This document shows positions 1 through 24,836 of a DNA stretch of 32,000 bases, one piece after another; positions within the stretch are counted from its first letter, which is position 1; every line of letters begins with the position of its first letter. Below the pieces are notes generated by a model. The model had not been told where the DNA came from, did not search any database, and saw only the letters and a program-made list of their open reading frames with translations. The stretch comes from Alkalilimnicola ehrlichii MLHE-1 (GTDB lineage Bacteria > Pseudomonadota > Gammaproteobacteria > Nitrococcales > Halorhodospiraceae), in assembly GCF_000014785.1 (NCBI RefSeq), contig NC_008340.1, positions 1,200,001 to 1,232,000 of the forward strand, written 5' to 3'. A program made the translations under genes and the position numbers.

Positions 1-3000
1 AGGCGCTGGTGCCGGAGGGGCTGGAAGAGGTCGCCGAGTCGGCCATCGACAGCGGACTGGAGGCCGTCGACGACGAGCTCGACAACCAGGATCTGCCGGA
101 CTTCGGGCTTGGGCTCGGTCTGGTGGACGCCTCGGCCATCGTCACCCTGGAGGACGGTGCGGAACTGGACGCGGGCGGGAACGTGAACATCCATGCCGAG
201 GCGCAGCGCACCGCCCGCGCCGAGGCGCATGCCGACGGCGACGGCCTCGGTGGCGCCTTCGCCCTGGCCTCGATCAGCGGGCAGACCGCGGTCACCGTGG
301 AAGAGGGCGCGAGCATTGTGGCCGGCGGTGACATCGACCTGCGCGCGGCCAGTCACAATGAATTGGTGGCCGAGGCCGTCACCGAGGTGGGCGACGGTTT
401 TGACGTCGGCCTGGGCGGCAGTGTGGCCCTGGGCTTCCTACAGTCGGAGCCGGAGGATGGCGGCACCACCGTCCAGGTGCAGGAGGGGGCGACCCTCGCC
501 GCCGGGGGCGATCTCGGCCTGTCGGCGTTCACGGAACACGATGTCACCGTCGACGCCACCACCACGCTCGGCAGCGGGGGCGAGGCGGCTTTTGGCGCCA
601 CGGTGGCCTACCTGGGTCTGGACTGGACCACCCGCACGCTGCTCACCGGCGGGGCGGTCGCCGACGACACCGTTGAACCCCCCGTGGGCATCGTCGCCGG
701 CGGTGACCTGCGGATGGTGGCGCGCACCGACCAGGCGATCCACACCGGGGCCTCGGTGGAGACCACCGGCGACATCAGTGTGGGGCTGGCGGCGGCGGTG
801 GCCGAGTTGAACAACACCACCCGCGTGGTCCTGGACGGTACGGTGCGGGCGGGCGGGGACGCGACCCTGCTGGCGGAATCCATCACCCGGGCGCAGCACA
901 CCGTGGCCACCACCCGGGCCGCGGAGGACGCTGACAATAACGGCGGTAATGGCAACGACGGACCGGACGAGGCCGCCGACGATCAAGGCACCTCCGACTA
1001 CGTGGCCGGTCTGGTCGGTGACGTGGATACCGGCGAGCCGGAGGAGACCCCGGGTGCCGGTGGCAATGGCGGCCTGGCCCTGGATATCGGGGCGGCGGTG
1101 GCCTACACCGATGCCCGGGACAGCGCCAGCACCACCCTCGGAGGCAATACCCAGCTGTTGCCACCCGCCGGCCCGCTGGGACCGGGTGGCCAGGTGGCCA
1201 TCGTCTCCCGCCGGCAGTTGGACAATCTCTCCACCCGCGCCCGCTCCGGCACCGAGGCCACCGGCCCGGACGGTGACGACGGGGCCAACAGCATCAACGC
1301 GGCGGTCAGTTACGCCCGGCTTGACCAGATCGCCCGTACCGAGATCGCCGACGGTGCCCGCATCGAGGCCGGGCGCATCGGCGTTGGCGCCGAGGTGGAT
1401 CTGCCCGCACGGGTGGCGTGGGGTGACGAGGACAACGAGGACGGGCCGGGCGGGCTGGACGACATTGCGGGCGCTGACAGCGATGATCTGGACGACTGGT
1501 TGACCAGCGAGGCCAGCACGTCGTCGGAGACCGGCGGCACGGTGAATATCGCCGGGGCGGTGAACCTGCTGGACCTGACCGCCACTGCCGAGGCGCTGGT
1601 GGGCACTGGTGACGATCCCACCGATGTGACCACCCTGCACGCGGTGGGTGATGGCGGTGACTGGGAAACCGAGCTGGGCGGTGACACCACCTGGCACTGG
1701 GACGATGCCGTTGCCGTGGCGGCCCGCAGCCGGGTGGAGACCGTGGACGTGGCGGGGCAGGCGGCGGCCGCCGGCACCGTGGGTGTTGGTGGCGGCGTCA
1801 ACTGGCACCTGCGGGAGAGCACCGCCCGGGCGCGCCTGGCCGGCAGCGCGGATATCAGCGCCGACACCGGCGGCGTGTCGGTGTCCGCCGATCGTCGGGA
1901 CAGGGCCATCGTGCTCACCCCGATAGCCGGAGAGTCTGATGGTGGTGCCGTTGGCCTGGGGGCGTCGGTGGCCTATGCCCGTATCGACGGGACCAGCCAG
2001 GCGCAGCTCGACGAGGGCGCCATGGTCGCCGCCGGCGGTGCCCTGGCGGTCACCGCTGGCGGCGACCTGCATGCCGAGATCCTGACCGCCAGCAAAACCA
2101 GCGGCGACGCCACCGCCGGGATCGCCGGCACGGTGGCCTTCGCTGACATCTCCCTGGATACCACCGCCGCAGTCCACGGCCAGCCCGTGGACAATGCCCT
2201 GGAGGTGGGCGACCTGTACCTCCACGCCCTCGACCTGCAGGACTACCAGGTGCAGGCCTCGGCGGAGGCCCAGGGCGATGTCGCCATCGGCCTGGCCGGC
2301 GCGGTACTGGATACCGAGGCCGGCACCCGGGCCCTGCTGTACCGGGATGTCACCACCGACGGCGACGTGGTGCTGATCGCCGACTCCGAGACCACCGGGC
2401 GCGGCGTGGCCGCGAGCACCCGGGCCGAAACCGGGGAGGCGGGTGACAACGGCAACGGAGAGAACAATACCGGCGACGATCGCGACCTCAACACCGTCGA
2501 CTTTGTCCAGCAGCGGGGCGAGCGCGGCAACGAGGGGGTCGATGACGGCCTGCAGGACGTGGCCGGGGACCCCGGTGCCGGCCAGTCGGAAGAGGCCGGC
2601 TTCGACGTCAATGTCGGCGCGGCGGTCGCGTTTACCGGTGCCGACGACTCGGCCGGGGCGCACATCGGCGAGGCGGTGACCATCAGCGGCCCGGGCGGGG
2701 GTGCCGCGGGTGACGTGGCCGTGCTCGCGCGGCGCGCCGAGAGCGGCTATCGCGGGCGCGCCCAGACCGAGGTGGAGACGGCCCCCGAGGATGACGGCGT
2801 CGGTGTCGGGGTCGGCGCCGCACTCACCCTGACCTTCATGGACAACAGCGCGGAGGCACTTATCGGCGCCTCGGCGGTGGTTGACGCCCATCGCGTCGGG
2901 GTGGCCGCGGACGTCATCCTGCCGGACCACTTTGAGGGGCCTGCCTGGGACGGTCTCGAGACCCTCCGCGACCTGGCTCAGGACGACGACGATGAGCTGA

Positions 3001-6000
3001 CCTACGACGAGGCGGAGTCCAATCTGCTGGACATGGCCGACGGTTGGCTCACCACCTATGCCAACGCCGCGGCCGAATCGGAGGACGGGGTCTTCGACGG
3101 CGCCGCCGCCGTCAACTTCGCCCGCTACAACGTCAACGCCGACGCCTGGATCGGTGAGGGCGCCGAGGTGACGGCCGGCGGCACGGCTGGCGATACCGGC
3201 TGGAGCACCGAGCTGCGCCCGGCGCAGGACAATGGCGATCCGGCCCTGAGCCGTCGGTGGAACGAGGCGATCACCGTCAGCGCCGGGGCCGATGTCCGCA
3301 CCATCGACGTCGCCGGCAACGTCGGTGGCCTGCTCACCGCCGGCGTCGCCGGGGACGCCACCGTGGGCATCGGCGCCGGTTTCGCCTGGTTGGAGCGCGG
3401 CGGCCACGTCAGCGCCGGTATCGCCGACCACGCGGTGGTGAGCGCCAGCCACGGGCAGGGCACCATTGGCGTGCACGCCGAGCGCTTCGACCAGTCCATC
3501 GGCATTGCACCCAGTTCCGGCCACGGGGCCAGCTTCGCCGGCAACGGTACGGTGGTGGTCAACCGCCTGGACACCGATACCGTGGCCGCGGTGAGCCACG
3601 CGGCGGCGGTCGACGCCGCGGCACTGACCGTCAGCGCCGGCCGCGATCTGCGCTGGTGGTCGGTGGCCGGTTCCATCACCCTGGCCGAAAGTGTCGCTGT
3701 CGGCGTCGGCATCTCTGTCAACGAACTGCGGACCGATACCCGGGCCGTGATCGGCGATGTGGCCGGTCTCCGCCCGGCGATGGCCGGCGGCGGGGACGTC
3801 ACCGAGCTGGATGACACCGAACAGGGGATTACCGCCGACCAGGTCACCGTGGCCGCACGCAGCGATGGCCTGGTGGGCAGTGCCTCCATCGCCGGCGGCG
3901 CCGCCGGTGAGACCGGCGAGCCGCCGGCCACCGACAACTGGACCGACTCCGGGCTGACCAATGACGTGATTGGTGTCACCTCCGATCGCACCGAAGGGGC
4001 GGAAGCCCCCGAGGATGAGACCATCGCCGAGGCCGTGCAGAGCGGGACCGGCGAGCCAGCCGGGGCGCTGGATGAGCAGGAGGCGTCGGCGGACGACCTG
4101 GACGAGGACGGCGACCTTGCCAACCCGGACCCCACCCAGCCCGACCTGGAGACCTTCCCCGACGAGGGTGCGGACATCCCGGACGCGGGCGCCGATGCCG
4201 ACAGCGAGGAGACGGACCTGGGCGTCGCCGTGGCGGGGTCGGCCTCGGTCAACCTCAGCAGTCTGAACACCACGGCGCTCATCGAGGACGTGTCGCTGGC
4301 GGCGCGCGATGCCGACACCACCGACGTTACCGCCAGCGCGGTGGCCGCCGTTGACACCATCGCCGTCAGCGGCTCCGGGGCCCTGGTGCTGGGCGGTAAC
4401 AGCAGCGACCCTCAGGTGGCCATCGCCGGCACCGTGGGCGTCAATCTGCTCGGCGACCACACCCGGGCGCGGCTGGTGGACACCCGGATCGAGCAACCCG
4501 GCCAGGTGACGGTGGAGGCCCTTCGCGACGGTGAGTTGATCAGCGTCGGCATGGGGTTGGCGATCACCGCCAGTGGCTCCACCAAGGCCGCCGCCGTGGC
4601 CGGTTCCGTCTCCCTCAGCGACATCAGTAATGAGACCGCGGCCACCATCGAGGGCGGCACCATCGGCGACCCCGGGAGCGATCCCGAACCCGACGACGGG
4701 AGCGGGGTGCAGGTGCTGGCCTATGACCGCTCCAGCATCGGGACCGGTGGGGGTTCGCTGTTCGGCGGCAAGGGCGGTGGCTTCGGCGCCGCGGTGACTC
4801 TGGCCCAGGTGCGTAACACCATCGATGCGGGCATTCTCGGTACGCGCATCACCGACGTGGCCGAGGTGACCGTGGATGCCCTCAGCGCCACCCGCATCAT
4901 CAGTGCCGGCGCGGTGCTGGGTTACGGCGGAAAAGGGGCGGTGGGCGGCGCGGTGGTGTTGAACCGCATCGGCAACACCACCAAGGCCGCGATCGCCGAC
5001 CGGGACGACGGCGACGACGTGGAACGCGCGGAGATCACCGCCAATGAGCGGGTGCGGGTGCGGGCGCGCAGCGCCAGTGACGATGAACGCGTGGCGCTGG
5101 ACGACCGCATCGATGCCGCCGGTGGCGGTCACGTTTACAACTTCAGTGGTGAGGGCACCGCGCTGGCCGAGCCCGAGGCCGAAGGTGATCGCGACTGGGG
5201 CGATGACAGCTACGAAACCGGCGGCGATGAGTTCGCCGGCGAGGGCGGCGACCAGGCGGAGATCGACAGCGGCTACGATGACGCCGCCGAGGATGCCCGC
5301 TTCGACGGTGGCCCGCTGGAGGGTGATGCCATTGTCGGTGTGGCCGGCAGCATCAGCGCGAGCGGCAAGGCCAGCATCGGGCTGGCCTTCAGTGGCAACC
5401 AGATCGACAACGACTACATCGCCGAGGTGCGCGGCGCCCGGATCGACGGCGTGGATGGCGAGCTGAGCGTCGATGCCGCCGACCGGTCGCGGGTCATCGG
5501 CCTGGGGGTGGGCGGCGGCGCCTCGGGCAAGGTGGCCATCGCGGGCTCCGGCGCCGCCAATCTGATCGGTGGCGAGGCGCGTGCCACCATCGGCGGCAGC
5601 CGTGCGCAGGCGGACGACGGCCCGGTCCACCTGGCGGAGATCGACGCCGGGGCGGTGAATCTCGGCGCCGATCGCGGTAGCCGCATCGATGCCCTGGCCG
5701 GCAACGTCGCCTTCTCCGGCAAGGCCGGCATCGGTGCCGCCGTGGCCTACAACGCCATCGACACCGCGGTGGCGGCCGAGATCAACCACGCCGATCTCGC
5801 GCTGTCCGGGGGCGACCTGAGCATCGACGCCGGCAGCTCTTCCGACATCTACGGGGTGGCCGTCTCCGGCGGGGGCGGTGGCAAGGTGGCGCTCAACGGC
5901 AGTGCCATCATCAACTTCATCGATCTCGATGTCAGCGCCGGGCTGGGCAGCAGCCGGGTGCGCGACACGGGTGCCGTGCGAATCACCGCCGGCGACCATG

Positions 6001-9000
6001 GCGCCGGTGGCCAGGCCGCCATCTGGAGCCTGGCGGGAGCCATCAACGGTGCCGGCAAGGTCGCGCTGGGTGCGGCGGTGGCCTACAACGAGATCGAATC
6101 CCGCTTTGCCGCGGACATCACCGGCGCCGACATCGAAGCGCTGGGCCCGGTGGATGTGACCGCAGAGGTCAGCGGTGACATCAACACCCTGGGCGCCGCC
6201 GGCGGAGGCGCCGGCAAGGTGGCCCTGGGGGGCGCCGCCACCGTGAGCCGGATCGACAACACCGTCACCGCAAGCCTGACCGGGAGCCGGCTTTACGCCC
6301 CGGCGGCGCTGGTCACCGTGGCGGCGTCGCAGGATAGCCGTATCCGCGCCCTGGGCGCTGCCATTCAGGGTGGCGGCAAGGTGGGCGGGGGCGCGGCAGT
6401 GACCGTTAACCAGATCGGCTCCGGGGTGACTGCCGAGGTGACCGGCGGTGCGCCCGGTCTGCCGGCCGCCATCGATGATCCCGCCGGCGGCGGCGACGCC
6501 GAGGCCCACTACCATCTCGGTCACCTGGTGGTGGATGCCCGCTCGGACAACGAGATTCAGACCATCGCCGCCGGTGCCGCCGCCGGGGGTGTCGGCGGCG
6601 TGGCCGGTTCGGTCTCCACCAACCTGTTCGGCAACCGGACCAAGGCGCGGATCGCCGACGGTGCCGACGTGCTGGCCGAGGGCCACGTGCTGGTGGACGC
6701 CGCCAGCAGCGACAACGTGGCGTTGGTGGCCGGCAGCCTCGGCTTCGGCGGCAAGGCCTTTGGCGCTGCGGGCACCGTCGCGGTCAATATCGTGGAGAGC
6801 GAGACCCACGCCTGGATCGGCGGTGAGGACCCCGGCGACGCCACCGTGGTGGTCGCCCGGGCGCAACAGCCGGGCACGGTCAGTGGCCGTGACCACCGGT
6901 TGCACGCCATCCCCGGGCTGGTGGACAAGTCCGACGGCGAGAACACGTTTGATGACGAGGACGGTGTCGAGATCTACGACAGCGAGGTCGACGACGCCGC
7001 CGAGGACCGCGACGGCACCGGGGGCGGTAGCACCGGAGGCTTCTCGGTGGAGGACGAGGCGGGCGATTACCTGCTCAGCCGCCTGGTCCGGGATGATGAT
7101 CGCGGGGTGGACGGCGTCCGGGTGAGTGCCCGCTCCGATCAGACCACCAGCGCCGCCCTGGCCACCGCCGGCATCTCCGCCAACGTGGTGAAGGGCGGGG
7201 TGGGGTTGGCCGCCACCGCGTTGGTCAACCGCATCGCCGGCGAGACCACCGCCGGTATCCGCAACAGCGAGGTCAGCTCGGAGACCGATGTGGCGGTCTC
7301 TGCCGGAGGGCATGTGCATACCCGCGGCCTGGTCATCGGCGCTGCCCTGGGCAGTGTCGGTGCCTCCGGTGCGGCGGTGGTGGATGTGGTCACCCGCCGG
7401 ACCCGCGCCGGGATCGACGACGCCACGGTGACCGCCGGGGGGCGGATCGACGTGGACGCCGCCGGTTCTCAGAGCACCAGCGGCCTGGCCATCGGGGCCT
7501 CCGGCGGCACCTACGCCAGCCTGGCCGGCGGCGGGGTGGTCAGCCGGCTGGGGGCGCAGACCCTGGCGGAGGTCACCGGCAGTCGCCTGGAGGCGGGCGA
7601 CGTGGGCGTGCAGGCGGACAGCGACACCGGGGTGACGATGCTCACCGGCACCGTCTCGGTGGGTGCCGCGGCCGCCGCCGGCTCCTTCAACGTGGCGGTG
7701 GTGGACGCCGTCACCGTGGCCCGCATCGCCGACAGCGATCAGGACCGTTCCCGGCTCTCGGTGGAGGGCGAGGTGGACGTGGCTGCGGAGTCGTTGAACC
7801 GCTTCGGAACCATTGCCGCCAGCGGTGCCGCCGGCGGCACGGCCATTGCCGGCACCCTGGGCCTGAGCCTGCAACAGAGCGTCACCCAGGCCCGGATCGA
7901 GGGCGCGGCCATCGGCCAGGGGGACGACGATGTCCCCGCGCAGGTTAACGTCCGCGCCCGCGACCACCTGGAGGTGGGGGCCTTTGCCGGTGGTGCCTCC
8001 CTGGGCATGGGGATGGGCCTGGGGGCCGCCGCCAATGTCTTCAGCGGCCAGGCCTCCGTCCTCGCCGAGGTCAGAGACGGCGCGGCGATCGAGGCCGGCG
8101 CGGTGTCGGTCTCCGCCGAGCGCAGTGCCGAGCTGAGCCTGTATACCGCCACCCTGGGTGCCGGCCAGACCGGCTTCAGCGCCGGGGTCGGCGTGATCCT
8201 CCTGGGGGTGGGCGCCGGCGAGGTGACGCCCACCCGGGGCGAGGATGATATCGCCGAAGACGACGTGGAGGGCGGTCTCGAGCGGGAGCTCAATGGCAAC
8301 GGCGGCGGCACTCTGGACACCGCCAATACCTTCGCCAACTTCAGTTTCGAGGGGGATCCGGACAATGACGCCAACACCGAGGACGATGTCGGCGGCAGCC
8401 TCAGCGACGATCAGCGGGACAGCCTGGAGAGCGACCTCGAGTTCAACCTGACCGAGTCGGTGATCGATGGCGATGACCACCAGACGGTGGCCCGCATCGA
8501 TGCCAGCGATCTCCGCGCCGACCGGGTGGACGTGACCGCCGATGACCGGGTGGCCACCCGCAACTACGTGGGCTCCGGTGCGTTGGGGGGTGTCGGCTTC
8601 GGCGCCGCGGTGGGCTTCACCCGGGTGGGTAACGGGGTGGTGGCCGAAATCGGGGGTGACGGCACCCTGGATGTCGGCGAGCTCACCATCCGAGCCGGTC
8701 ACGACGACCTTGGTGGTGGCACTGCGGCGGAGACCCGCGCCTGGGCCGGGGCCGCAGGCGGCATCGGCCTGGCCGCCGCCTATGCCGATGCCGATGTGAC
8801 CACCGGGGTGCGTGCCACCCTGGGCCCGGTGAACCTCCAGCGCGACGCGGCCGACGACGCCGGCGTCGAGCTCACCATCGACGCCTTCGACCACGGCGGG
8901 ACCTATGCCGAGACCATCGGCGTGGCCGCGGGCTTCGTGGCCGGTGTGGGGGCGGCGATCTCCCGCGCGGCGCGAACCTCCACGGTAATCGCCGAGGTGG

Positions 9001-12000
9001 CCGACGACACCGCCGTCGGCAGTGACGACGAGGATTCGGCGGACTTCGATCTCTCCCTCAGCGCCGTCTCCGACGGTGGCGTGGCGGTCGATGGCATCGC
9101 CCTCGGGGCCGGCGTGGTGGGCGGCGGCGCCGCCGCCCTGGCGCTGGGCGAGGAGCGCTCGACGGTGCAGGCGCGCGTGGGCAACGGCGCTGACCTGCGG
9201 CTGGGCGACGGCGCGCTGACCCTGGATGCCCTGGCCCGGCCGGATGTGACCGCGGACGGGGTCGGGGTGGCGGCAGCGGTGACCGGGGCCATCGCTGCGG
9301 CGGTTTCCCGCGCCTACTCTTCGGCCACCGTTGAAGCGGCCGTCGGTGACTTAGACGGCCCCGGTGGCGCCGCGGTGCAGGCGCGCGCGGTGGATGTCCG
9401 GGCACGCAGCCTGCCGGTGGGCAGCTACGGTGCCGAGGCCGAGGCCATCGCGGGGAGTATCGCCAAGGGCGTGGCGGTCTCCGGGTCCTTCGCCTTCGCC
9501 ACCGACACCGCCACCGTAAACGCCGGCCTGGGGCCGGGGGCGGACCTGACCCTGGGCGGCGACGGGCTGTCGGTGTGGGCCGAGGCCGATCCCGCGGCCC
9601 GGGCCCGGACCCACGCCCGCACCTTCGCCGGCGGGGTCGCCTTCGGTGCCAACCTCTCGCAGGCCGCGTCCAATGCCGAGGTGGCAGCGGTGGTGGGTGA
9701 CCAGGCCTCGGTGCGGCTGGCCGACGGGGTGGACGAGGCCGATTTCACCATCCGCGCCATCGCCAATGACGACGGCAGTCGTACCGCCTACGCCACCGGC
9801 GCGGTGAGCGGTGGCGCGCTGCTGGTGTCCGCCAACGGCGGCTATGCCCGGGCCTATGAGCAGACGGCGGTGGACGCCCGCATCGGCACCGGCGCGACCC
9901 TGGACGCCGGTGCCGGTGAGGTGCGGCTGGGCGCCGACGCCACGCCCCACGCCCGGGCCGTGCTCGCCAGCCAGTCTTACGGTGGCGCGTTGGCCATCGG
10001 GGCCGCCATTACCGACGCCCGGGTGGCGGCCGACGTGACCGCTGCCATCGGTGACGGAACCGCCATTCTGGGCGGCGGTGACTTGACGGTGCACGCCCAC
10101 GTCGCCCGCCCGGCGGGTGCCGACAGTGCCTTTGCCCGCTCCGAGGCCAGCAGCGGCGCGCTGGCATCGGCCAATGCGGCCCTGGCGGAGGCCCGCAATC
10201 ACGCCCGGTCGCGGGCGCTGACCGGGGCCGGTGTCACCCTGCCCGGTGGCGTGGTGAGCCTGCGGGCGGAGAACCACAGCCGGCAGCACGGCCACAGTGC
10301 GTCGGAATCCTACGGCGCCTTCGCGGCCGGGATGACCGTGACCCGGGTGGAGTCCGACACCCTGACCCACGCCATCCTCGGCACCGACAACCAGGCCAGC
10401 GACAACGATGATCGGCCGGACGTGGTGGATGTCACCACCAACGCCAGCAGCCACGACCACGGCTTTGGCCAGACTGCCACCGGGGGCGCCATCGACGGGG
10501 CCGCGGCGGAGGTGCATACCTTCAGCACCGCCGATAACCGGGCCCAGGTGCTGGGCCACCACAGCGACCCGCTGCAAGTGGGTGTGCTGAATGTCCGGGC
10601 GCTGCAGGACACCCGCTTCTCCGGCGTGGTGGACACCAGCCGCGCGTCGGTGGCCGGTGCCAGTGGTGCCCGCCTGTACCATAACGCCAACCGGGTCACG
10701 GGCATCGTCAACGTCGACGAGGAGCGGGAGGCCTTCTACGGGGAAACCAGTGTAGTGGAGGCCGGGATCGGCGACCACGCCGATATCCGCGCCCTCTACG
10801 TGGACGTGATCGCCGAGCAGGCGGTGGAGCGCGTCGCCGACGCCGGTAACGACATCCGGGTTGCGGGCGGCGGGGTGCTGGGTGCCTCCGCCGGCCGCGG
10901 CGCCACGTATATTGAGACGATCACCCGGGCGGGTATCGGCACCGGGGCCACGGTCAACGTGGAGCTGGACCTGCTGGTCCGCGCCATCGAGGCGATCACC
11001 GCCGAACAGGTCGCCCGTCTGAACACCGGCAACGCCATCGATATCGCCCGGGCCGAGTCGGTGATGCACACCGATCACCAGAACGACGTGATCATCGGCG
11101 GAAACGCCAACATCACCGCCGGTGGCGATGTGGTGCTCTCCAACGCCACCGAGTTGGACCTGGTGGCTCATACCCGCGCCCGCACCTCCGGGGTGGCCAG
11201 TTTCGCCCGCGGCAACAGCGAGGCGGAGGCCGATGTGCGTGAGGGGATCACCGTGGGCAACGGCGCGCGGCTGGCCTCCGCCGGCAACGTGGTCATGCGC
11301 ACCGGCCTGGGCGACGGCGGTTTGCCGGCTCGCAAGGGCGTGGAGGCCGATACCTACCTGTACAACAAGGGGGCCCTGCCGCTGGAGAACGACCCTCGCG
11401 TGCATGCGGACCTGGTGGTGGACAGCCGTATCGACGTGGCCGACAACGCCGTGGTCGAGGCCGGACAGGACGCCTATCTGATCGCGCCCGTGGGTTTCCG
11501 GTACCGGGCCCGGGGCGAGGGCGAGGGCCAGGACATCTACCGGCGCGCCGCCGAGTCCATCGCCAACTTCTTCCGCCGGCTGGTCCGTGCCGATGAGGTC
11601 TCGCTGGCGAAGGAGGTGCGTAGCGAGGACCTGGTCCGGGGTAGCACCATCACCATCGACGGCCAGGTGGTGGGCGCCGGCGGCATGCACCAATACCTGT
11701 GGGTGCGCCAGGGCGACGATGACGACGAACGCATCCTGGCCAGCCCGGGTGTCGGCTACTTCTTCGAGGAACGCGACGTGCGCGGTGACCTGGAGGCGCT
11801 GGTCGGTGCCTACCGGGATCTGCTGGGGGAATACGTGGAGCCGGATCCGGACGATCCGGAGGGCTCCGGTCTGCTGTTCTGGCGCGCCGCCGCCCAGATC
11901 GAGACCCTCGCCGGCCGCCTGGCTGCCCTGGGGGATGAGGATGACGGGCCCTATGACGGCGGCCGGGCGGTGCCCTTCATCGAGGTGGAGGACATCACCG

Positions 12001-15000
12001 CCACCGGTGGTGATGTGGTCGTCCGGGCGGATGCGGTGGAGGGTGGTGGCGAGGTCCGGTTGGGCCCGGACCTGGAGGCCATCTTCAGCGACTTCGCCGG
12101 TGGGGATCTCAACCAGGTGCCGGCCGAGTTCCTGGAGCCGGGCGGGCCGAGCATTCGCATCCTGGTGGAGTCCAACGAGTGGCTGCAGGTCAACGACCTG
12201 ATCATCGACGACCGCCGTGACGGCAGCATCACCATCGCCCAGGAGAGCGGCGCCTTCGGCGGTATCGCCGTGCCGACCCGGGTCTCCGGGGTGGGTGAAC
12301 TGCCAAGCGGGCTTCGCTACGACACCGGCGGGGTGGAGGCCACCCCGGAGATCCGCGTGGTGCACCAGTTCGAGGTCCCGCCCCAGGAGGACCACCTCTA
12401 CACCAACCCGGAGATCCGCCTGGGCCACGAGCCGGACCCCGCCGACCAACTGGAAGGCGAGTCGGTGACCGCCCGCATCATCAACCCGCGCGGTCTGGTG
12501 CAGGTGGGCAACCAGGCCGGCAGCATTATCTCCTCGGCCAGCATCGAAGCCGCCGCGGTGGAGATCGTCGCCGGTGGTAATTTCGTGCAGAACTGGATTC
12601 CCGGGTTCTTCCACGCCGGCGGGCAGCCCGAGGCCGCCGGCGAGGCCAGCCGCATCCTGGCCGGGGGCGACATCTACATCAGCGCCGAGCACATCAATGT
12701 CAATGGCCTGATCCAGAGCGGGTTCGACGAGTGGACGCTGGATTTCTCCTCCGACCTGCTGGGGAATGCCGGGACCACCCTCGATTTCGACGCCGACAAG
12801 GGCCACAGCCTGGGTGATTACCTGGAGTGGTACGGCAAGGGTTATCGTGCCACCAAGGAGGTGGAGGAGGCCCCGATACCCTTCTGGGCGCAGTTCTTGC
12901 CGCCCTCCATTTGGCACCTGCTGGGCTATGGCTTCGCCCCCGACGTCGACGCGGCGGATGTGCCGGACGATTTCCGCACCGCCTACAACGCCGGCCGTAG
13001 CGGTGAGCAGTTCCTGCAGCTGACCGGCGGCGAGGGCTTCGACGTGGAACTCGGCACCGTGGCCAGCTTCTACGATGCCGAGGCCGACCGCATCGACATC
13101 CAGCGCGCCGCCGTGGGCGGTGGCTACATCTTCCTGGCGGGCGACGTGGTGAGCACCGGCGGAGGCGAGATCCGGGCCTTGTCGGGTTTCGGTGAGATCC
13201 GGGTGGATACCACCGGCGGCGGGGAGGACGCCTTCCGTACTCACCAGGATGTGGTGCTCTATGACCTGGACGCCGGGACCCAACCCCATGCGCCCAGTTT
13301 CGACCTGCCCGAGGAGGAGCTGATTTCTGCGGAGGGCCTAGCGCCCTGCCGGCCCTGCGTGAGGATCTGGGATACCGCCAAGCGTGACGGCGAGGGCAAC
13401 CCCATCGAGACCGTCTTCCAGCACGACTGGAACCCGGACCCAGCGGCCCCGGACGGGAGCTTCGGCACCATCGCCAAGACCGTCTCCCGGCTCGACCGCG
13501 AGCAGCGTGACGATGACTTCTTCCTGCTGCGCACCGTGGTCGACGAGGATGACCCCTTCTATGGCCAGGAGCAGGACGCAGGCTTCGGCCCCCGTCCGGG
13601 GGCCACCGCGCAGTACCTGCCCCGCGAAGGGATGCGCTACCTCTACGGCGACAGCGTGGATGAAGACTCCGGGCGGCTGCTGTTCCCGGACGACGATGTG
13701 CCGTCAGGGCCGGGCTATCAGTCCATGCGGGCGGACCGGGCTATCGACGTCGGGTTCATCGGCAACCCGGTGGGTACCATCGACATCAAGAGCATCGGTG
13801 ACGTGATCATCGACGGCAGTGTGCGCAACCCCCAGGGGCTGACCACGGTGGAGACCGTCGGTAGCATCCGGGAGCCGGAGCAGGGCGGGCTGTTGCAGGG
13901 TCGCCAGCTCACTCTGGAGGCCGGTGGCGCCGTCGGCAGTGAGGGCGCCCCGCTGCGGGTGATCGTGGGTGACGGCGAGGTCACGCCGGACGATGCCTGG
14001 CTGGTGGCCCTGGCCGGGGATGGCGGGGTCTTCCTGGACGGCCTGCGCGGCGATCTGCCGGTGCGCGAGGTGGGGACGCTCAGCGGCCATACCGTGGACA
14101 TCGACGCGGCCCGTCACTTGATCGACCGCGGCACCGCCCCCGACCGGCCCACGGTCTACGGCGCCCGGGTGCATCTGCGTGCCCGGGACGGCTCTATCGG
14201 TGGCAGGGAGCAGGGCGAATTCGTGCTGCCGCTGACCATCGCCTCCGGGGTCGGGGTTGTGGTGGACGATCCGGACGCGCTGCCGGATTGGCTGAACCTT
14301 CCGCTGGGCAGCGCCAACGTAACCGCCCGCGCCGCCGGCCATGTCCTGCTCGCGGAAGATGCCCGCGGACTGGCCAGTGCCGGTGTGCCCGTCGACGGTG
14401 ACATTCACGTGGAGGCGCTCCGCGCCGCCGAAGGCGATGTCCGGCTCTTTATCGCCGACGGCAAGCTGATCAGCGCCATCGACGCCGAGCTCGATACCGA
14501 CCGCATGGTCCGCCTGGGCGAGATGTGGGACTCGCTGGGGATGCTCGACGACGGCTCGCCCAACAGCGGCGTAGCCCGCTTTGTCGAGGATCAGGTGGAG
14601 GCCTTCGAGGCCTCGGTGGAGAGCCGCTACCGTGACTGGTGGGAGCTGGACCGCCTGGCCGGGGAGGACGGCGGCTTCGACCTGGCCCCGGATCGGGCCC
14701 GCATTTACGCCCACCGGGCCGGCGTCGACGGCTCACCGGAGGCGTGGGACGAGACGGCGGACCCGCAGGGCGTGGCCGACAACACCGCCGCGGTCAATGC
14801 CTGGCTGGAGGGCCGTTACGGCGCGCTCAGCGATGAATTGGGCGAACTGCTGCTGGAGGGCAACGGCGACCAGTCCCTGGCGGACCTGGGTACGGTGGTC
14901 GAGGAACCGCTGGCCGAGGATCCGGCCACCGGGGAGATGCTGTTCTATGAACGGGTCGAGTTCGATTACCAGGCGCCGGACAGTGTCCGTGACCAGCTCG

Positions 15001-17165
15001 CGGAAGGGGCGGAGTGGACCGAGGAGCAGTTGCTCAACGTCCTCAGCGAGGACCGGATGCTGGAGACTGTGGACACCCAGTACCAGCGGGTGGAGACCAT
15101 TATCCAGGGGGAGAATGTGGCCATCGAGGCGCCGCGGGGTTCCATCGGCTCGTCTGACGACCCGCTCTGGATCCCGGCCCCCGAGGACGAGGACAGCAAC
15201 TTTGATTTCACCGAGGAGGAACGCGCCGCCCTGGTCAGCGCCCAGCCGGGCGATGTCCGGCTGATCGGCGAGGTGGTGTTGGTGGATGGCCAGGTCATGG
15301 ACCTGGGCGATTTCCTGCGCCTGCTCGGCACCGGGGGCCCCGGCGGGCTCACCCTGGAGGATCTCGACACGGTCGATTTCGACGGCATCGAGATCGAGCA
15401 GGTACGCTACGCCGGGGTCATCGCCACGGAGGGGGGGCAGTCGCACCATGCCGCCGATGACCTTGGCGGCGACATCTTCCTGGGTGTCCCCGGCACCAGC
15501 ATCGCCCTGGAGCGGCTCTGGGGTGGTGGCGACATCCGCGTGCGGGTCGGCGGCGGTATCGAAGCCCACGACGACCCGACACGGGGCGATGATCCGGAAG
15601 ATGCCATCATCCGCGGCGGTGCGGCGGGGGTGCTGCTGGAGGCGGCCGGCGGCGGCATCGGCGCCGAGGGGTTGCCGCTCACCACCGCGTTGGACCCCCG
15701 CGCCCTGATCACCGCCCGGGCCGTGGGCTCGGTGCACCTGCACGCCCTGGGCGGTAACCTGACCCTGGACAGTGTCTTCAGCGAGCAGGGCGATGCCGTG
15801 CTGGCTGCCGACCAGGGGCATATCGCCCGTTTGGCGCTGCCGGGCGCGCCGCTGGCGGACTTCGGCACCCTGGACATCGCCGCCGATGAGATCCGGCTGG
15901 ATGCCGGCACCTTTGTCGGCGCGGTGGATCGCGACGCCTTCCTGGCCCTGGACAGCACGGCTGAGCCGGGGGACCTGGAGGCGGTCACCGACGCCGCCAT
16001 GCGCCTGCGCCACGGTGACGACGCCCGGGTGACCGGTTCTGCCGGGGACCGCTTCCAGGTGTTCGCGCCGGAAGGGGGGCTGGTGGTCCGCGATGTGGAA
16101 GCCGGCGGCCGGGTCGTGGCCGGCGCCTGGGAGGATGTCACCCTGGAGCGGGTGACCAGCACCGCTGGCGACGGCGAGGCGGCCTTCGTCTTCAGCGAGA
16201 CGGGCTTCATCATCGGCAGCAATGAGGCCGGCCTGGAGGAACCGCTACACCTGCGGGCACTGGGCGGGGACGCCACCACGCGGTTGATCGCCCCGCTGGG
16301 CATCGGTCTGCCCGATGACTTCCTGTTCCTCGATGCCACCCGGATCAGCTCCGCCACCACCCTGGGCGGTCACGCCTTCCTCCACGGCACCACCGATTTG
16401 CGAGCCGATCTGATAGACGTGCCCACCGGGCGGTTGGAGGTGCGCGCGCCCCAGGCCATCGAAATCGATCGGTTGCGGGTTCACGACCGGGTGGACCTCA
16501 AGGGCGACGCCATCGAGGCGCACATCGAGCACACCGCCAACCCGGACCCGCTGCCGCTGGACGTGGTGGGCCTGGTCGAGCACTACGCATCGGAGGTGGA
16601 CCTGTCCGTGGACACCCCGGCCGATCTCATCGTCGAGCGGCTCTATGCCCGCCGCGCCCGATTGGAGACCAACACCACGCGAGTCGACATGCCGGACAAC
16701 GACATCTTCCACTGGTTGGAGGTGTTCACGCCGGAGGTCCACCTGTGGGCCGACAACCAGCGGCCCGACCGGCGCGACGTGGACGTCCAGCTCTATGAGC
16801 CGGGGTACCGCTTCTTTGTCGACCAGGACGGGCGGCACACCATCACCAACGCCTTCAGCGGCGCCTACCGGCCCGGCTACCGCCTGGAGCTGGTCAACTA
16901 TCAACCGGGCCGCGACCGCGCCCGTTTCGATGTGGATGGTCGCAGCATTGTGCGCGATGCCGGTCGGCTGGAGCAGCGCATCGTGCCGATCCCCGACACC
17001 CTGCCGGGGCTGCGGGCCTTCTGGCCGGACGACGAGGTCTCGGTGCAGGTGGTCGGTGCCGGCCTGCCGGGGGCGCCGCCCGACTTCCCGGTTAACCTGG
17101 ACTGGACCGGTCTGTTGCAGGGCGATGACGATCAATCCGGGGCAGAGGAGAATGGCGCTCAATGA
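1..17165 (+). CDS. Giant secreted filamentous exoprotein, TpsA-like / LktA-family-like beta-helical adhesin (5' partial, >5,718 aa)
   Basis: One uninterrupted frame runs from the window edge (codons in phase with nt 3/9) to TGA at 17163-17165. The true start and any N-terminal TPS secretion domain therefore lie upstream of the window. The translation is Gly/Ala/Val/Asp/Thr-rich with recurring beta-helix-like units (e.g. GAGKVALGAAVAYNEI). It has almost no Lys and only two Cys, as expected for type V secreted filamentous proteins. Its stop overlaps the start of a TpsB gene. The family call rests on motif recognition plus context, not on a search. Confidence 0.9.
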   Translation, partial: ALVPEGLEEVAESAIDSGLEAVDDELDNQDLPDFGLGLGLVDASAIVTLEDGAELDAGGNVNIHAEAQRTARAEAHADGDGLGGAFALASISGQTAVTVEEGASIVAGGDIDLRAASHNELVAEAVTEVGDGFDVGLGGSVALGFLQSEPEDGGTTVQVQEGATLAAGGDLGLSAFTEHDVTVDATTTLGSGGEAAFGATVAYLGLDWTTRTLLTGGAVADDTVEPPVGIVAGGDLRMVARTDQAIHTGASVETTGDISVGLAAAVAELNNTTRVVLDGTVRAGGDATLLAESITRAQHTVATTRAAEDADNNGGNGNDGPDEAADDQGTSDYVAGLVGDVDTGEPEETPGAGGNGGLALDIGAAVAYTDARDSASTTLGGNTQLLPPAGPLGPGGQVAIVSRRQLDNLSTRARSGTEATGPDGDDGANSINAAVSYARLDQIARTEIADGARIEAGRIGVGAEVDLPARVAWGDEDNEDGPGGLDDIAGADSDDLDDWLTSEASTSSETGGTVNIAGAVNLLDLTATAEALVGTGDDPTDVTTLHAVGDGGDWETELGGDTTWHWDDAVAVAARSRVETVDVAGQAAAAGTVGVGGGVNWHLRESTARARLAGSADISADTGGVSVSADRRDRAIVLTPIAGESDGGAVGLGASVAYARIDGTSQAQLDEGAMVAAGGALAVTAGGDLHAEILTASKTSGDATAGIAGTVAFADISLDTTAAVHGQPVDNALEVGDLYLHALDLQDYQVQASAEAQGDVAIGLAGAVLDTEAGTRALLYRDVTTDGDVVLIADSETTGRGVAASTRAETGEAGDNGNGENNTGDDRDLNTVDFVQQRGERGNEGVDDGLQDVAGDPGAGQSEEAGFDVNVGAAVAFTGADDSAGAHIGEAVTISGPGGGAAGDVAVLARRAESGYRGRAQTEVETAPEDDGVGVGVGAALTLTFMDNSAEALIGASAVVDAHRVGVAADVILPDHFEGPAWDGLETLRDLAQDDDDELTYDEAESNLLDMADGWLTTYANAAAESEDGVFDGAAAVNFARYNVNADAWIGEGAEVTAGGTAGDTGWSTELRPAQDNGDPALSRRWNEAITVSAGADVRTIDVAGNVGGLLTAGVAGDATVGIGAGFAWLERGGHVSAGIADHAVVSASHGQGTIGVHAERFDQSIGIAPSSGHGASFAGNGTVVVNRLDTDTVAAVSHAAAVDAAALTVSAGRDLRWWSVAGSITLAESVAVGVGISVNELRTDTRAVIGDVAGLRPAMAGGGDVTELDDTEQGITADQVTVAARSDGLVGSASIAGGAAGETGEPPATDNWTDSGLTNDVIGVTSDRTEGAEAPEDETIAEAVQSGTGEPAGALDEQEASADDLDEDGDLANPDPTQPDLETFPDEGADIPDAGADADSEETDLGVAVAGSASVNLSSLNTTALIEDVSLAARDADTTDVTASAVAAVDTIAVSGSGALVLGGNSSDPQVAIAGTVGVNLLGDHTRARLVDTRIEQPGQVTVEALRDGELISVGMGLAITASGSTKAAAVAGSVSLSDISNETAATIEGGTIGDPGSDPEPDDGSGVQVLAYDRSSIGTGGGSLFGGKGGGFGAAVTLAQVRNTIDAGILGTRITDVAEVTVDALSATRIISAGAVLGYGGKGAVGGAVVLNRIGNTTKAAIADRDDGDDVERAEITANERVRVRARSASDDERVALDDRIDAAGGGHVYNFSGEGTALAEPEAEGDRDWGDDSYETGGDEFAGEGGDQAEIDSGYDDAAEDARFDGGPLEGDAIVGVAGSISASGKASIGLAFSGNQIDNDYIAEVRGARIDGVDGELSVDAADRSRVIGLGVGGGASGKVAIAGSGAANLIGGEARATIGGSRAQADDGPVHLAEIDAGAVNLGADRGSRIDALAGNVAFSGKAGIGAAVAYNAIDTAVAAEINHADLALSGGDLSIDAGSSSDIYGVAVSGGGGGKVALNGSAIINFIDLDVSAGLGSSRVRDTGAVRITAGDHGAGGQAAIWSLAGAINGAGKVALGAAVAYNEIESRFAADITGADIEALGPVDVTAEVSGDINTLGAAGGGAGKVALGGAATVSRIDNTVTASLTGSRLYAPAALVTVAASQDSRIRALGAAIQGGGKVGGGAAVTVNQIGSGVTAEVTGGAPGLPAAIDDPAGGGDAEAHYHLGHLVVDARSDNEIQTIAAGAAAGGVGGVAGSVSTNLFGNRTKARIADGADVLAEGHVLVDAASSDNVALVAGSLGFGGKAFGAAGTVAVNIVESETHAWIGGEDPGDATVVVARAQQPGTVSGRDHRLHAIPGLVDKSDGENTFDDEDGVEIYDSEVDDAAEDRDGTGGGSTGGFSVEDEAGDYLLSRLVRDDDRGVDGVRVSARSDQTTSAALATAGISANVVKGGVGLAATALVNRIAGETTAGIRNSEVSSETDVAVSAGGHVHTRGLVIGAALGSVGASGAAVVDVVTRRTRAGIDDATVTAGGRIDVDAAGSQSTSGLAIGASGGTYASLAGGGVVSRLGAQTLAEVTGSRLEAGDVGVQADSDTGVTMLTGTVSVGAAAAAGSFNVAVVDAVTVARIADSDQDRSRLSVEGEVDVAAESLNRFGTIAASGAAGGTAIAGTLGLSLQQSVTQARIEGAAIGQGDDDVPAQVNVRARDHLEVGAFAGGASLGMGMGLGAAANVFSGQASVLAEVRDGAAIEAGAVSVSAERSAELSLYTATLGAGQTGFSAGVGVILLGVGAGEVTPTRGEDDIAEDDVEGGLERELNGNGGGTLDTANTFANFSFEGDPDNDANTEDDVGGSLSDDQRDSLESDLEFNLTESVIDGDDHQTVARIDASDLRADRVDVTADDRVATRNYVGSGALGGVGFGAAVGFTRVGNGVVAEIGGDGTLDVGELTIRAGHDDLGGGTAAETRAWAGAAGGIGLAAAYADADVTTGVRATLGPVNLQRDAADDAGVELTIDAFDHGGTYAETIGVAAGFVAGVGAAISRAARTSTVIAEVADDTAVGSDDEDSADFDLSLSAVSDGGVAVDGIALGAGVVGGGAAALALGEERSTVQARVGNGADLRLGDGALTLDALARPDVTADGVGVAAAVTGAIAAAVSRAYSSATVEAAVGDLDGPGGAAVQARAVDVRARSLPVGSYGAEAEAIAGSIAKGVAVSGSFAFATDTATVNAGLGPGADLTLGGDGLSVWAEADPAARARTHARTFAGGVAFGANLSQAASNAEVAAVVGDQASVRLADGVDEADFTIRAIANDDGSRTAYATGAVSGGALLVSANGGYARAYEQTAVDARIGTGATLDAGAGEVRLGADATPHARAVLASQSYGGALAIGAAITDARVAADVTAAIGDGTAILGGGDLTVHAHVARPAGADSAFARSEASSGALASANAALAEARNHARSRALTGAGVTLPGGVVSLRAENHSRQHGHSASESYGAFAAGMTVTRVESDTLTHAILGTDNQASDNDDRPDVVDVTTNASSHDHGFGQTATGGAIDGAAAEVHTFSTADNRAQVLGHHSDPLQVGVLNVRALQDTRFSGVVDTSRASVAGASGARLYHNANRVTGIVNVDEEREAFYGETSVVEAGIGDHADIRALYVDVIAEQAVERVADAGNDIRVAGGGVLGASAGRGATYIETITRAGIGTGATVNVELDLLVRAIEAITAEQVARLNTGNAIDIARAESVMHTDHQNDVIIGGNANITAGGDVVLSNATELDLVAHTRARTSGVASFARGNSEAEADVREGITVGNGARLASAGNVVMRTGLGDGGLPARKGVEADTYLYNKGALPLENDPRVHADLVVDSRIDVADNAVVEAGQDAYLIAPVGFRYRARGEGEGQDIYRRAAESIANFFRRLVRADEVSLAKEVRSEDLVRGSTITIDGQVVGAGGMHQYLWVRQGDDDDERILASPGVGYFFEERDVRGDLEALVGAYRDLLGEYVEPDPDDPEGSGLLFWRAAAQIETLAGRLAALGDEDDGPYDGGRAVPFIEVEDITATGGDVVVRADAVEGGGEVRLGPDLEAIFSDFAGGDLNQVPAEFLEPGGPSIRILVESNEWLQVNDLIIDDRRDGSITIAQESGAFGGIAVPTRVSGVGELPSGLRYDTGGVEATPEIRVVHQFEVPPQEDHLYTNPEIRLGHEPDPADQLEGESVTARIINPRGLVQVGNQAGSIISSASIEAAAVEIVAGGNFVQNWIPGFFHAGGQPEAAGEASRILAGGDIYISAEHINVNGLIQSGFDEWTLDFSSDLLGNAGTTLDFDADKGHSLGDYLEWYGKGYRATKEVEEAPIPFWAQFLPPSIWHLLGYGFAPDVDAADVPDDFRTAYNAGRSGEQFLQLTGGEGFDVELGTVASFYDAEADRIDIQRAAVGGGYIFLAGDVVSTGGGEIRALSGFGEIRVDTTGGGEDAFRTHQDVVLYDLDAGTQPHAPSFDLPEEELISAEGLAPCRPCVRIWDTAKRDGEGNPIETVFQHDWNPDPAAPDGSFGTIAKTVSRLDREQRDDDFFLLRTVVDEDDPFYGQEQDAGFGPRPGATAQYLPREGMRYLYGDSVDEDSGRLLFPDDDVPSGPGYQSMRADRAIDVGFIGNPVGTIDIKSIGDVIIDGSVRNPQGLTTVETVGSIREPEQGGLLQGRQLTLEAGGAVGSEGAPLRVIVGDGEVTPDDAWLVALAGDGGVFLDGLRGDLPVREVGTLSGHTVDIDAARHLIDRGTAPDRPTVYGARVHLRARDGSIGGREQGEFVLPLTIASGVGVVVDDPDALPDWLNLPLGSANVTARAAGHVLLAEDARGLASAGVPVDGDIHVEALRAAEGDVRLFIADGKLISAIDAELDTDRMVRLGEMWDSLGMLDDGSPNSGVARFVEDQVEAFEASVESRYRDWWELDRLAGEDGGFDLAPDRARIYAHRAGVDGSPEAWDETADPQGVADNTAAVNAWLEGRYGALSDELGELLLEGNGDQSLADLGTVVEEPLAEDPATGEMLFYERVEFDYQAPDSVRDQLAEGAEWTEEQLLNVLSEDRMLETVDTQYQRVETIIQGENVAIEAPRGSIGSSDDPLWIPAPEDEDSNFDFTEEERAALVSAQPGDVRLIGEVVLVDGQVMDLGDFLRLLGTGGPGGLTLEDLDTVDFDGIEIEQVRYAGVIATEGGQSHHAADDLGGDIFLGVPGTSIALERLWGGGDIRVRVGGGIEAHDDPTRGDDPEDAIIRGGAAGVLLEAAGGGIGAEGLPLTTALDPRALITARAVGSVHLHALGGNLTLDSVFSEQGDAVLAADQGHIARLALPGAPLADFGTLDIAADEIRLDAGTFVGAVDRDAFLALDSTAEPGDLEAVTDAAMRLRHGDDARVTGSAGDRFQVFAPEGGLVVRDVEAGGRVVAGAWEDVTLERVTSTAGDGEAAFVFSETGFIIGSNEAGLEEPLHLRALGGDATTRLIAPLGIGLPDDFLFLDATRISSATTLGGHAFLHGTTDLRADLIDVPTGRLEVRAPQAIEIDRLRVHDRVDLKGDAIEAHIEHTANPDPLPLDVVGLVEHYASEVDLSVDTPADLIVERLYARRARLETNTTRVDMPDNDIFHWLEVFTPEVHLWADNQRPDRRDVDVQLYEPGYRFFVDQDGRHTITNAFSGAYRPGYRLELVNYQPGRDRARFDVDGRSIVRDAGRLEQRIVPIPDTLPGLRAFWPDDEVSVQVVGAGLPGAPPDFPVNLDWTGLLQGDDDQSGAEENGAQ
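4767..6800 (+). repeat. Degenerate tandem ~54-codon coding repeats (G-G-K-x-x-x-G-x-A-x-x-x-N/x-x-I modules) inside the giant ORF
   Basis: In-frame Gly-Lys motifs have Lys codons at 4770, 4932, 5367, 5529, 5721, 5883, 6057, 6216, 6378 and 6753. Most spacings are 159-192 nt, and 162 nt is the commonest. Unit examples: FGGKGGGFGAAVTLAQV, YGGKGAVGGAVVLNRI, ASGKVAIAGSGAANLI, FSGKAGIGAAVAYNAI, GGGKVALNGSAIINFI, GAGKVALGAAVAYNEI, GAGKVALGGAATVSRI, GGGKVGGGAAVTVNQI, FGGKAFGAAGTVAVNI. The repeats are diverged at the DNA level. Confidence 0.8.
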
Positions 17166-23368: not shown

Positions 23369-24148
23369 CTAGGGCACGAACACCACCTCACCGCTCTGCG
23401 GGTTGACCAGCGTCAGCCCGAAGTCGGTGGTGCCGCGGGTCACCCGCACGAAGGCCCCGGTATCCAGGCAGACGTGGGACAGGCGCCGGCGGAGGGTGCG
23501 ACCGACGGTGTGGCCGCAATAAGTGGTGGACAGCGATTCACTGCGCTCGGGCAGGGGGCTGCGCAGCCGCCCCATGAGCCGTCGGGACCAGAGCAGCGGC
23601 GTCGGGTCGACGCCGGGCAGGCCGGCGTCGATGTCGGCGTCACTCAGCAGCCCCTGTGGCGCCCCCGGACTCACCAGTTCGGCATGGACCAGTTGAAAGC
23701 GCCCGGCGCCGCTGCCCACCACCAGCACATGGGGCAACTCGGCCTGCATGTGGAGCAGGGGCATCAGCGGGTGGTCCGCGGGGTCGGGATCGAGCAGCAG
23801 GTCCTGCGCCCAGGTGTCGGCGCCGTTGGCCAGCAACAGGTGGGCCGCCTCGATCCTGCGCAGGGACCCGGGCGGTGCCTCCAGCCAGTCCCGGATCATA
23901 TCGTCGTGATTGCCCCGTACGCTGTGGAACCAGGACGCCAGCAGCAGTTCCAGGCAGGCCACCGACTCCGGCCCCCGGTCGGTCAGATCGCCCACGCACA
24001 GCAGACGGTCGCCCCCTTCCGGGTTGAAGTCGACCCGTTGCAACCCCTCATTGAGCAGGGAACGGCAACCGTGCAGGTCACCGACCACCCAGTCCCGGCG
24101 CTGGTGGTTAGGCGGCAACCGCTCAATGATGGTCTGGTGTCGAGCCAT
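23369..24148 (-). CDS. Ser/Thr protein phosphatase-type metallophosphoesterase (lambda phosphatase / PrpA-PrpB-like, PPP family)
   Basis: The 259-aa ORF carries the PPP metallophosphoesterase motifs in the canonical order: VVGDLHGC, CVGDLTDRGP, VRGNHDDM, then HAELV and YCGHT. A GGAAGA sits about 7 nt upstream of ATG 24148. Confidence 0.85.
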   Translation of the reverse strand: MARHQTIIERLPPNHQRRDWVVGDLHGCRSLLNEGLQRVDFNPEGGDRLLCVGDLTDRGPESVACLELLLASWFHSVRGNHDDMIRDWLEAPPGSLRRIEAAHLLLANGADTWAQDLLLDPDPADHPLMPLLHMQAELPHVLVVGSGAGRFQLVHAELVSPGAPQGLLSDADIDAGLPGVDPTPLLWSRRLMGRLRSPLPERSESLSTTYCGHTVGRTLRRRLSHVCLDTGAFVRVTRGTTDFGLTLVNPQSGEVVFVP

Positions 24149-24331
24149 GACAGGTCTTCCGTTGCGTAGTATCAGGCTAGCAGCGGTGGCAGGGAGCTGA
24201 CTCTTTAGGTAGTTCCCTCTAGGTAGAGAGACGAATTACCGCGCAGGGCCCTTCGGCATAACCTGACAGTGAATTCGGCGGGAGCACAACCGCCGGACCC
24301 GAGACCCAACTCAATGCCTGAGGTGACCATC

Positions 24332-24724: not shown

Positions 24725-24746
24725 AGCCATGGTGTGTGACGGCGAA

Positions 24747-24790
24747 CAGGGCCCCTGGTGAACAAAGGCGTTCCCAGGGCCCTGCCTTTT
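24747..24790 (+). terminator. Rho-independent terminator after the small secreted-protein gene
   Basis: CAGGGCCCCTGG (24747-58) pairs with CCAGGGCCCTG (24774-84), giving 11 bp with one bulged C and a 15-nt loop. It is followed by CC-TTTT (24785-90) and sits 23 nt after the stop codon. Confidence 0.6.
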
Positions 24791-24836
24791 GATCACAAAA
24801 AATGAACATATTTCATCTATTGCCTTGTCCCATCGT

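Follow-up and report, generated by a model that had tools for sequence, protein, structure and literature searches.

Why does a giant protein that is almost devoid of lysine keep one lysine in each of a run of repeats? The question is raised by a 32,000-nucleotide stretch of the genome of Alkalilimnicola ehrlichii MLHE-1 (contig NC_008340.1, positions 1,200,001 to 1,232,000), called the window in what follows, which has a G+C content of ~70% and is dominated by one giant open reading frame (ORF) at nt 3..17165 on the plus strand. The ORF is open at the left edge, contributes 5,720 aa within the window (in frame 3, the codon of residue i begins at nt 3+3(i-1)), and encodes an LktA-family filamentous exoprotein, the presumed TpsA cargo of a two-partner secretion system. 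Its 5,720 residues include 28 K, 323 R, 576 D, and 353 E, which puts Lys at 0.49% and gives a D+E content of 16% against 6% K+R. An earlier note on this DNA had drawn attention to the depletion and to a lysine that recurs with a regular period. The answer we consider probable is that the periodic lysine is the favoured turn residue of a known repeat, with the scarcity of lysine elsewhere being ordinary for a GC-rich genome. The giant protein is an already catalogued but unstudied member of that repeat family, NCBIfam NF012206 (LktA_tand_53), which the earlier note did not recognise in the modules.

The repeats build a stalk at nt 243..10985 (aa 81-3661; plus strand, as for all of the modules below), in which ~46 modules of ~53 residues are detectable with an iterated hidden Markov model (HMM) within the ORF and with a family HMM made without the protein itself. 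Most of the stalk modules are degenerate and carry G, A, T, or S in column 11 of the repeat, the column where the lysine is found. The canonical LktA_tand_53 modules with the periodic Gly-Lys form a core block at nt 4554..6875 (aa 1518-2291). NF012206 matches the giant ORF at 246.9 bits (cut-off 50) in 11 stretches between aa 1501 and 2500; it also matches aa 1-1500 at 65.9 bits, and weaker matches lie on both sides of aa 1501-2500. Ten core modules score 48-65 bits each against a seed HMM and the flanking modules score under 18 bits, a comparison that is circular in that the seed was built from those same ten modules, so that the independent support comes from the 11 NF012206 stretches.

The core block opens with the module at aa 1518-1579 (nt 4554..4739), whose lysine codon begins at nt 4584 (K1528), followed by those at aa 1581-1632 (4743..4898; codon 4770, K1590) and aa 1634-1686 (4902..5060; motif codon 4932, K1644). 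The next two are at aa 1779-1831 (5337..5495; codon 5367, K1789) and aa 1833-1885 (5499..5657; codon 5529, K1843). After these come aa 1897-1949 (5691..5849; codon 5721, K1907), the first module of the segment modelled below, aa 1951-2000 (5853..6002; codon 5883, K1961), aa 2009-2061 (6027..6185; codon 6057, K2019), aa 2063-2115 (6189..6347; codon 6216, K2072), and aa 2116-2168 (6348..6506; codon 6378, K2126). The module at aa 2188-2239 (6564..6719) has Val in column 11, and the block closes with aa 2242-2291 (6726..6875; codon 6753, K2251). These eleven lysine codons and the one at nt 2094 are the twelve that the earlier note had listed, and all were confirmed. The first two are indeed the sole lysines of the first 1,589 residues, with the correction that they are K698 and K1528, two higher than first numbered.

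The claim of one lysine per ~54-residue module held as a statement about periodicity and needed amending in its details. The interval also holds two non-motif lysines that had gone unlisted, both in column 28: K1661 (nt 4983), the second lysine of the module at aa 1634-1686, which is Gln in the ortholog described below, and K2214 (nt 6642), the sole lysine of the Val module, which is Glu there. The motif is looser than the G-G-K-x-x-x-G-x-A first proposed, approximating [GSA]-G-K-x-x-x-[GAN]-x-[AS] at a spacing of 53-64 residues. Downstream of the core block, K2397 (nt 7191) and K3155 (nt 9465) sit in similar G-rich contexts and are motif-like lysines that the earlier list lacked. The spacing widens twice, to 145 residues where an acidic insert intervenes (aa 1688-1778) and to 125 at the Val module; such inserts explain both gaps. 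These inserts are Gly/Asp/Glu-rich, low in complexity, and 80-100 residues long, and break up the stalk at intervals (nt ~3900-4200, 5064-5336, 6900-7170, and 8250-8490; aa ~1300-1400, 1688-1778, 2300-2390, and 2750-2830). A P-loop reading of the 'GxxGK' letters was also considered and rejected on the basis of the strand context, the lack of a following S/T, and the lack of an NTPase-type or other Pfam match.

When the modules were aligned without anchoring on the lysine, using a family HMM built without the giant protein or its ortholog, the stretch from aa 1518 to 2435 contained 13 modules, 11 of them with Lys in column 11. The per-column check of conservation that the earlier note had proposed shows only A29 (13/13), G10 (12/13), and A47 (11/12) equalling or exceeding it in those modules. 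Modules outside the aa 1518-2435 block have G, A, T, S, or D in that column.

The general loss of lysine, which the earlier note had put down to composition, is just that. Within the window, Lys makes up 0.49% of the giant ORF, 0.53% of the TpsB transporter encoded next to it, and 0.34% of a CHAT-domain protein, with the GGDEF, AcrB, cytochrome b561, and other ORFs at 1.1-2.8%; among the window ORFs examined, K/(K+R) ranges from 0.00 to 0.29. At the orthologous locus, unrelated genes range over 0.25-1.5% Lys, including a major facilitator superfamily (MFS) transporter at 0.25%, SelO at 0.81%, and an SBP/SLT protein at 0.66%. With a baseline of about 15 genes from the window and the orthologous locus, the poverty in lysine belongs to the genome and is not specific to this gene, reflecting the shift from Lys to Arg that is ordinary in GC-rich genomes. 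The periodic lysines are conspicuous because the lysine-poor genome removed nearly all of the others. The background thus acts as a natural filter that shows which lysine of a widespread repeat resists replacement by Arg.

How the position behaves across the family was followed with a profile search using the 13 window modules, which found 931 representative proteins at E <= 1e-3; column statistics were taken from 1,560 repeats in the best 154 of these 931. The repeat is spread over Proteobacteria, Cyanobacteria, and Planctomycetota, among others, and has the consensus SLAGGGAGGGKVAVGGSVAVNDIDNTTEAYIDGSTVTAAAGDVTVTATDDSTIN. Column 11 of the 1,560 repeats is K in 29.6%, T in 16%, A in 11%, S in 9%, G in 8%, and R in 2.1%, and with the close ortholog excluded V accounts for 6%, D for 1.6%, and E for 0.9%. 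Across the family, N21 (85%), A29 (90%), and A47 (93%) are far more conserved than column 11. Lys is enriched at column 11 by 14-27-fold over the other columns in every class of Lys content, while in all of these classes Arg stays close to its frequency in other columns. No literature specific to the repeat or to 'FxxPxG' was found, and there was no named LktA sequence among the 5 and 11 matches of a word-indexed search, in which low-complexity words saturate the candidates.

The close ortholog gives a second view of the same position. This protein, P0161, was read from a metagenomic contig and is 6,067 aa at full length and 86.4% identical to the giant ORF. All 13 motif lysines are kept in it, as against nine of the 15 others (Fisher p = 0.018), the remaining six having changed to Q, E, or R. 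Both the ortholog and the family frequencies of Lys and Arg bear out the idea, put forward in the earlier note, that the retained lysines are under selection; the constraint is specific to Lys.

A structural model points to the role the lysine could play. An AlphaFold2 model of aa 1897-2170 (nt 5691-6512), which spans five modules and was made with a 35-row alignment of five-module segments, reached a mean predicted local distance difference test score (pLDDT) of 87.7 and a predicted template-modelling score (pTM) of 0.84, with pLDDT ~90 around each Lys; a single-sequence AlphaFold run on aa 1566-2303 gave a pLDDT of 41.8 and was not used. In all five modules, DSSP assigns G10 and K11 as two non-strand residues between strands. 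The layout is a long strand that runs from columns ~42-53 into columns 1-9 of the next module, the turn at 10-11, a 21-residue strand at 12-32, and a wider connection at 33-41. Mean-field direct coupling analysis (DCA), which is independent of AlphaFold, was run on 388 gap-free repeats only, a gapped single-module set having been discarded for artefacts, as was an analysis of 199 concatenated pairs of neighbouring modules in which gap artefacts were dominant. The strongest of its anti-diagonals (z 5.2) lies at i+j = 21-22 and corresponds to antiparallel pairing across columns 10/11, and a weaker one at i+j ~72-76 pairs columns 21-32 with 42-53. Together, the DSSP layout and the DCA pairing predict that Lys11 is the second residue of a tight two-residue hairpin turn, and the structural role suspected from the outset fits this predicted place between two long strands. 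Tyr at column 8 is coupled to Lys11 (7.7% vs 0.7%, p 2e-11), which suggests local packing.

The architecture is predicted with confidence to consist of long hairpins with no solved homologue. Foldseek searches with the model found no significant match in the PDB (best E 0.06, TM score at most 0.21) or in BFVD (best E 0.009, TM score at most 0.32), and relatives of the repeat in the PDB were found neither by the sequence of a single protein nor by profile.

In the mechanism we favour, each of the ~12 best-preserved repeats would form two beta-strands of ~21 residues joined by the two-residue turn Gly10-Lys11, with Gly10 supplying the backbone geometry of the turn. Lys11 would be favoured at the second position and not obligatory, with T, A, S, G, and V accepted there and Arg, Asp, and Glu hardly ever. 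The aliphatic part of the side chain may pack on aromatic or aliphatic neighbours in columns 8 and 12, while the amine may reach solvent or cap carbonyls of the backbone at the Gly-rich tip of the hairpin. As each module would contribute one turn, all on a single edge of an antiparallel meander, the lysines would be spaced ~1 nm apart along that edge of the fibre. Tight-turn positions after Gly generally take small or beta-branched residues and avoid acids and Arg, which fits the replacements seen in column 11.

Several observations weigh against this account. The search profile itself carries Lys at column 11, mildly favouring repeats that bear it. The lysine is also dispensable: it is found in 0/23 repeats of one relative (P0010), 0/10 of a second (P0046), and 0/16 of a third (P0034), and relatives at 35-39% identity keep 0-7 of 11 motif lysines. 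Lys11 is correlated between neighbouring repeats (57% vs 18%), which could mean a collective function. The packing and capping roles of the side chain are inferred, and turn propensity by itself leaves the near-exclusion of Arg unexplained. Selection for Lys over Arg at the turn is real; its physical basis is what we infer.

The correlation between neighbours is the natural starting point for a different account, in which the lysines form a functional positive ridge on an acidic fibre that binds anionic surfaces (lipopolysaccharide, exopolysaccharide, minerals, or the target-cell envelope), or serve as 'gatekeepers' against aggregation, so that the Gly/Ala-rich strands stay soluble while being exported. 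Selection would then act on the collective effect of the lysines and not on the turn. The excess of D+E over K+R in the protein would suit such a role, as would the tendency of Lys11 to come in runs (57% of cases with a Lys neighbour vs 18% otherwise), its limitation to one contiguous block of ~12 modules, and the predicted topology, which would put the G-K turns on the same sheet edge. The runs fit either a ridge or the shared ancestry of adjacent repeats, from which clustering is also expected. A role for charge should moreover accept Arg, all the more in a genome that has shifted from Lys to Arg almost throughout, yet Arg is rare at column 11 in the family (2.1% against 29.6% for Lys) and does not occur there in the giant protein itself, and it is uncharged residues (T, A, S, G, and V) that commonly take the place of Lys. 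We regard the ridge or gatekeeper account as unlikely. The salt-bridge ladder floated in the earlier note found no backing, as no acidic column covaries clearly with Lys11; the strongest, D24, is present in 21.7% of repeats with the lysine vs 14.6% of those without, and the one strong correlate is Lys at column 11 of the adjacent repeats.

The exclusion of Arg could instead be taken to mean that the lysines are chemical handles, sites of post-translational acylation or of covalent cross-links, such as Lys-Asn isopeptides, that stabilise or anchor the fibre. In RTX toxins it is the lysine of a Gly-Lys pair that is acylated. Conservation specific to Lys, the retention of all 13 motif lysines in the ortholog, a Gly-rich context that would leave the side chain accessible, and a gene two positions downstream whose product has an LCAT-like alpha/beta-hydrolase segment along with a CHAT domain are what could be expected of such handles. 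Against this, Lys11 shows no clear coupling to N21, N25, or any acidic column, so the cross-link to a conserved Asn suggested in the earlier note finds no support (N21 is present in 81.1% of repeats with Lys11 vs 85.2% of those without, N25 in 65.4% vs 66.6%), and in the model an extended strand of ~10 residues would separate N21 from the turn. A Lys-Asn isopeptide was rejected on this lack of co-conservation and on the lack of an isopeptide-domain match. The Pfam scan of the giant ORF gave zero family matches anywhere, and thus neither a known isopeptide-forming domain nor the RTX nonapeptide repeat HemolysinCabind; matches to these and to HlyC-type acyltransferases were missing from the neighbouring genes as well. 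No acyltransferase of the HlyC/CyaC family was found among the scanned genes of the window or of the ortholog locus (including 5.4 kb upstream), and the genes of the four family loci, in one of which the relative adjoins a ShlB gene, include no HlyC-type or other modifying enzyme common to them, which speaks against the modification site that had also been proposed. A signal peptide is not evident in the CHAT protein, which is absent beside the relative P0035, and the lysine is dispensable in many relatives. Modification or cross-linking is accordingly a very improbable explanation, and we think equally little of its fuller form, in which the hairpin-tip lysine would be kept for chemistry beyond the reach of Arg and, acylated or cross-linked after export, would turn the ~12-repeat block into a part of a type Vb fibre that is anchored in lipid or stapled covalently. 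Least credible of all is a periodicity due to chance or to inheritance from recently duplicated, near-identical units with no selection on lysine. Tandem repeats do hand on whatever residues their founder unit had, but the modules are only 23-43% identical to each other at the protein level and Tandem Repeats Finder detects no ~160-nt period in the DNA; therefore the lysine pattern is not a relic of recent duplication. If 16 Lys were scattered at random over 777 sites, a given set of 13 sites would receive 11 or more of them with a probability of ~6e-15 after correction for 54 columns. The same column is enriched in Lys in hundreds of unrelated proteins, and the motif lysines stand at 13/13 in the ortholog while other lysines turn over. 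These results on identity, DNA repeats, probability, family, and ortholog refute that reading.

If the lysine is the favoured residue of a hairpin turn, the pattern mostly changes nothing: it would be what a curated repeat family normally prefers at this position, made conspicuous by a lysine-poor genome. It does flag the G-K hairpin tip as a place to mutate in a structural study of the repeat. A solved structure of a few modules would inform on LktA-type toxins and adhesins.

The wider context of the giant protein is that of two-partner secretion. The first ~347 residues of the protein fall outside the window, and its N-terminus was taken from the ortholog, where aa 82-228 match NF012204 (adhes_FxxPxG) at 110.8 bits (cut-off 60) and contain LFATPHG. 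The two-partner secretion (TPS) domain PF05860 matches the ortholog N-terminus weakly (17.6 bits, E 0.0037, under the cut-off of 33.5), with the NF012204 domain occupying the same place. Immediately downstream, at nt 17162..18847 on the plus strand, lies the gene of a TpsB-type outer-membrane transporter (ABI56401.1 and the identical WP_011628796.1) with a POTRA_2 domain (PF08479 at 3.7e-16) and a ShlB/FhaC/HecB barrel (PF03865 at 5.5e-27), and its ATG overlaps the TGA of the giant ORF (ATGA, nt 17162-17165). Exact look-ups assign the transporter, the CHAT-domain protein that follows it, and a diguanylate cyclase to A. ehrlichii MLHE-1. The NF012206 and NF012204 matches and the adjacent transporter gene identify the giant protein as a ~6,000-residue LktA-family filamentous exoprotein with a TpsB partner gene. 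It is presumably exported through the downstream ShlB/FhaC-type transporter in the two-partner, type Vb manner.

The closest known system is the leukotoxin LktA of Fusobacterium necrophorum, which has been described as a type 5b two-partner secretion substrate encoded in the lktBAC operon (10.1101/534297). The giant protein shares with the LktA family the 53-residue tandem repeat at scores above the cut-off, the FxxPxG domain (in the ortholog), an adjacent gene of the ShlB/FhaC type, and Lys at repeat column 11, which is the family consensus. It differs in being extremely lysine-poor and acidic, in having a C-terminal region of ~2,000 aa without a family match, and in belonging to a free-living haloalkaliphilic gammaproteobacterium and not to an animal pathogen; its locus differs in the DUF7379/LCAT-like/CHAT gene that follows the transporter gene. 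LktA is ~3,200 aa long, which makes the giant protein (~6,067 aa) about twice as long. Membership in the LktA family is assigned here by homology.

Classical TpsA adhesins such as Bordetella FHA/FhaB, HMW1, and ShlA, which form a right-handed parallel beta-helix, share with this system the giant fibre encoded beside an Omp85-type TpsB with POTRA domains. The ortholog only weakly resembles their TPS domain, with the PF05860 match under the Pfam cut-off (E 0.0037). In place of their helix coils of ~19 residues, the model predicts a 53-residue unit with strands of ~21 residues and tight hairpins, and it matches no solved beta-helix structure (best TM score 0.17). The top-ranked Foldseek matches in the PDB were the functional amyloids FapC and CsgA (curli), which share strand-turn-strand repeats rich in Gly, Ala, Ser, and Asn; these matches are not significant (E 0.06-1.2, TM score 0.10-0.21, root-mean-square deviation >23 Å) and there is no sequence relationship.

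The repeat is also found in unlike architectures. One protein (L003; GCA_009725235.1, contig WJFC01000043.1) combines it with DUF4347, Calx-beta, HemolysinCabind, and Peptidase_S8 (subtilase), another (L004; ENA ERZ24794654) with SdrD_B, dockerin, and CarboxypepD_reg, and neither has an adjoining TpsB gene. This spread points to the 53-residue module being a general fibre-building unit that is not tied to type Vb secretion.

Other features of the window belong to its description. The C-terminal ~2,000 residues of the giant ORF (nt 11100-17162, aa ~3700-5720) are not built of repeats, have no Pfam or NCBIfam match, and hold most of the non-motif lysines along with the sole Cys-x-x-Cys (CRPC, near aa 4450). 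Opposite the giant gene run two long antisense ORFs, at 438-8894 (minus strand, 2,818 aa) and 9351-13289 (minus strand, 1,312 aa), which are probably not genes, being stop-codon-poor artefacts of ~72% G+C and the composition of the repeats. Directly after the TpsB gene, at 18945-23327 on the plus strand, is the gene of the CHAT-domain protein, whose 1,460 aa comprise three stretches of DUF7379, an alpha/beta-hydrolase segment (LCAT-like or thioesterase-like), and, at the C-terminus, a caspase-like CHAT domain. The orthologous locus keeps it too, with two genes called for it. In the region ~24000-32000, to the right of the secretion locus, G+C falls from ~0.70 to 0.63-0.66, and the content changes to two GGDEF proteins, a DsrE-like ORF, cytochrome b561, and an AcrB-type pump. 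The Lys content of that region is 2-5 times that of the three-gene secretion locus.

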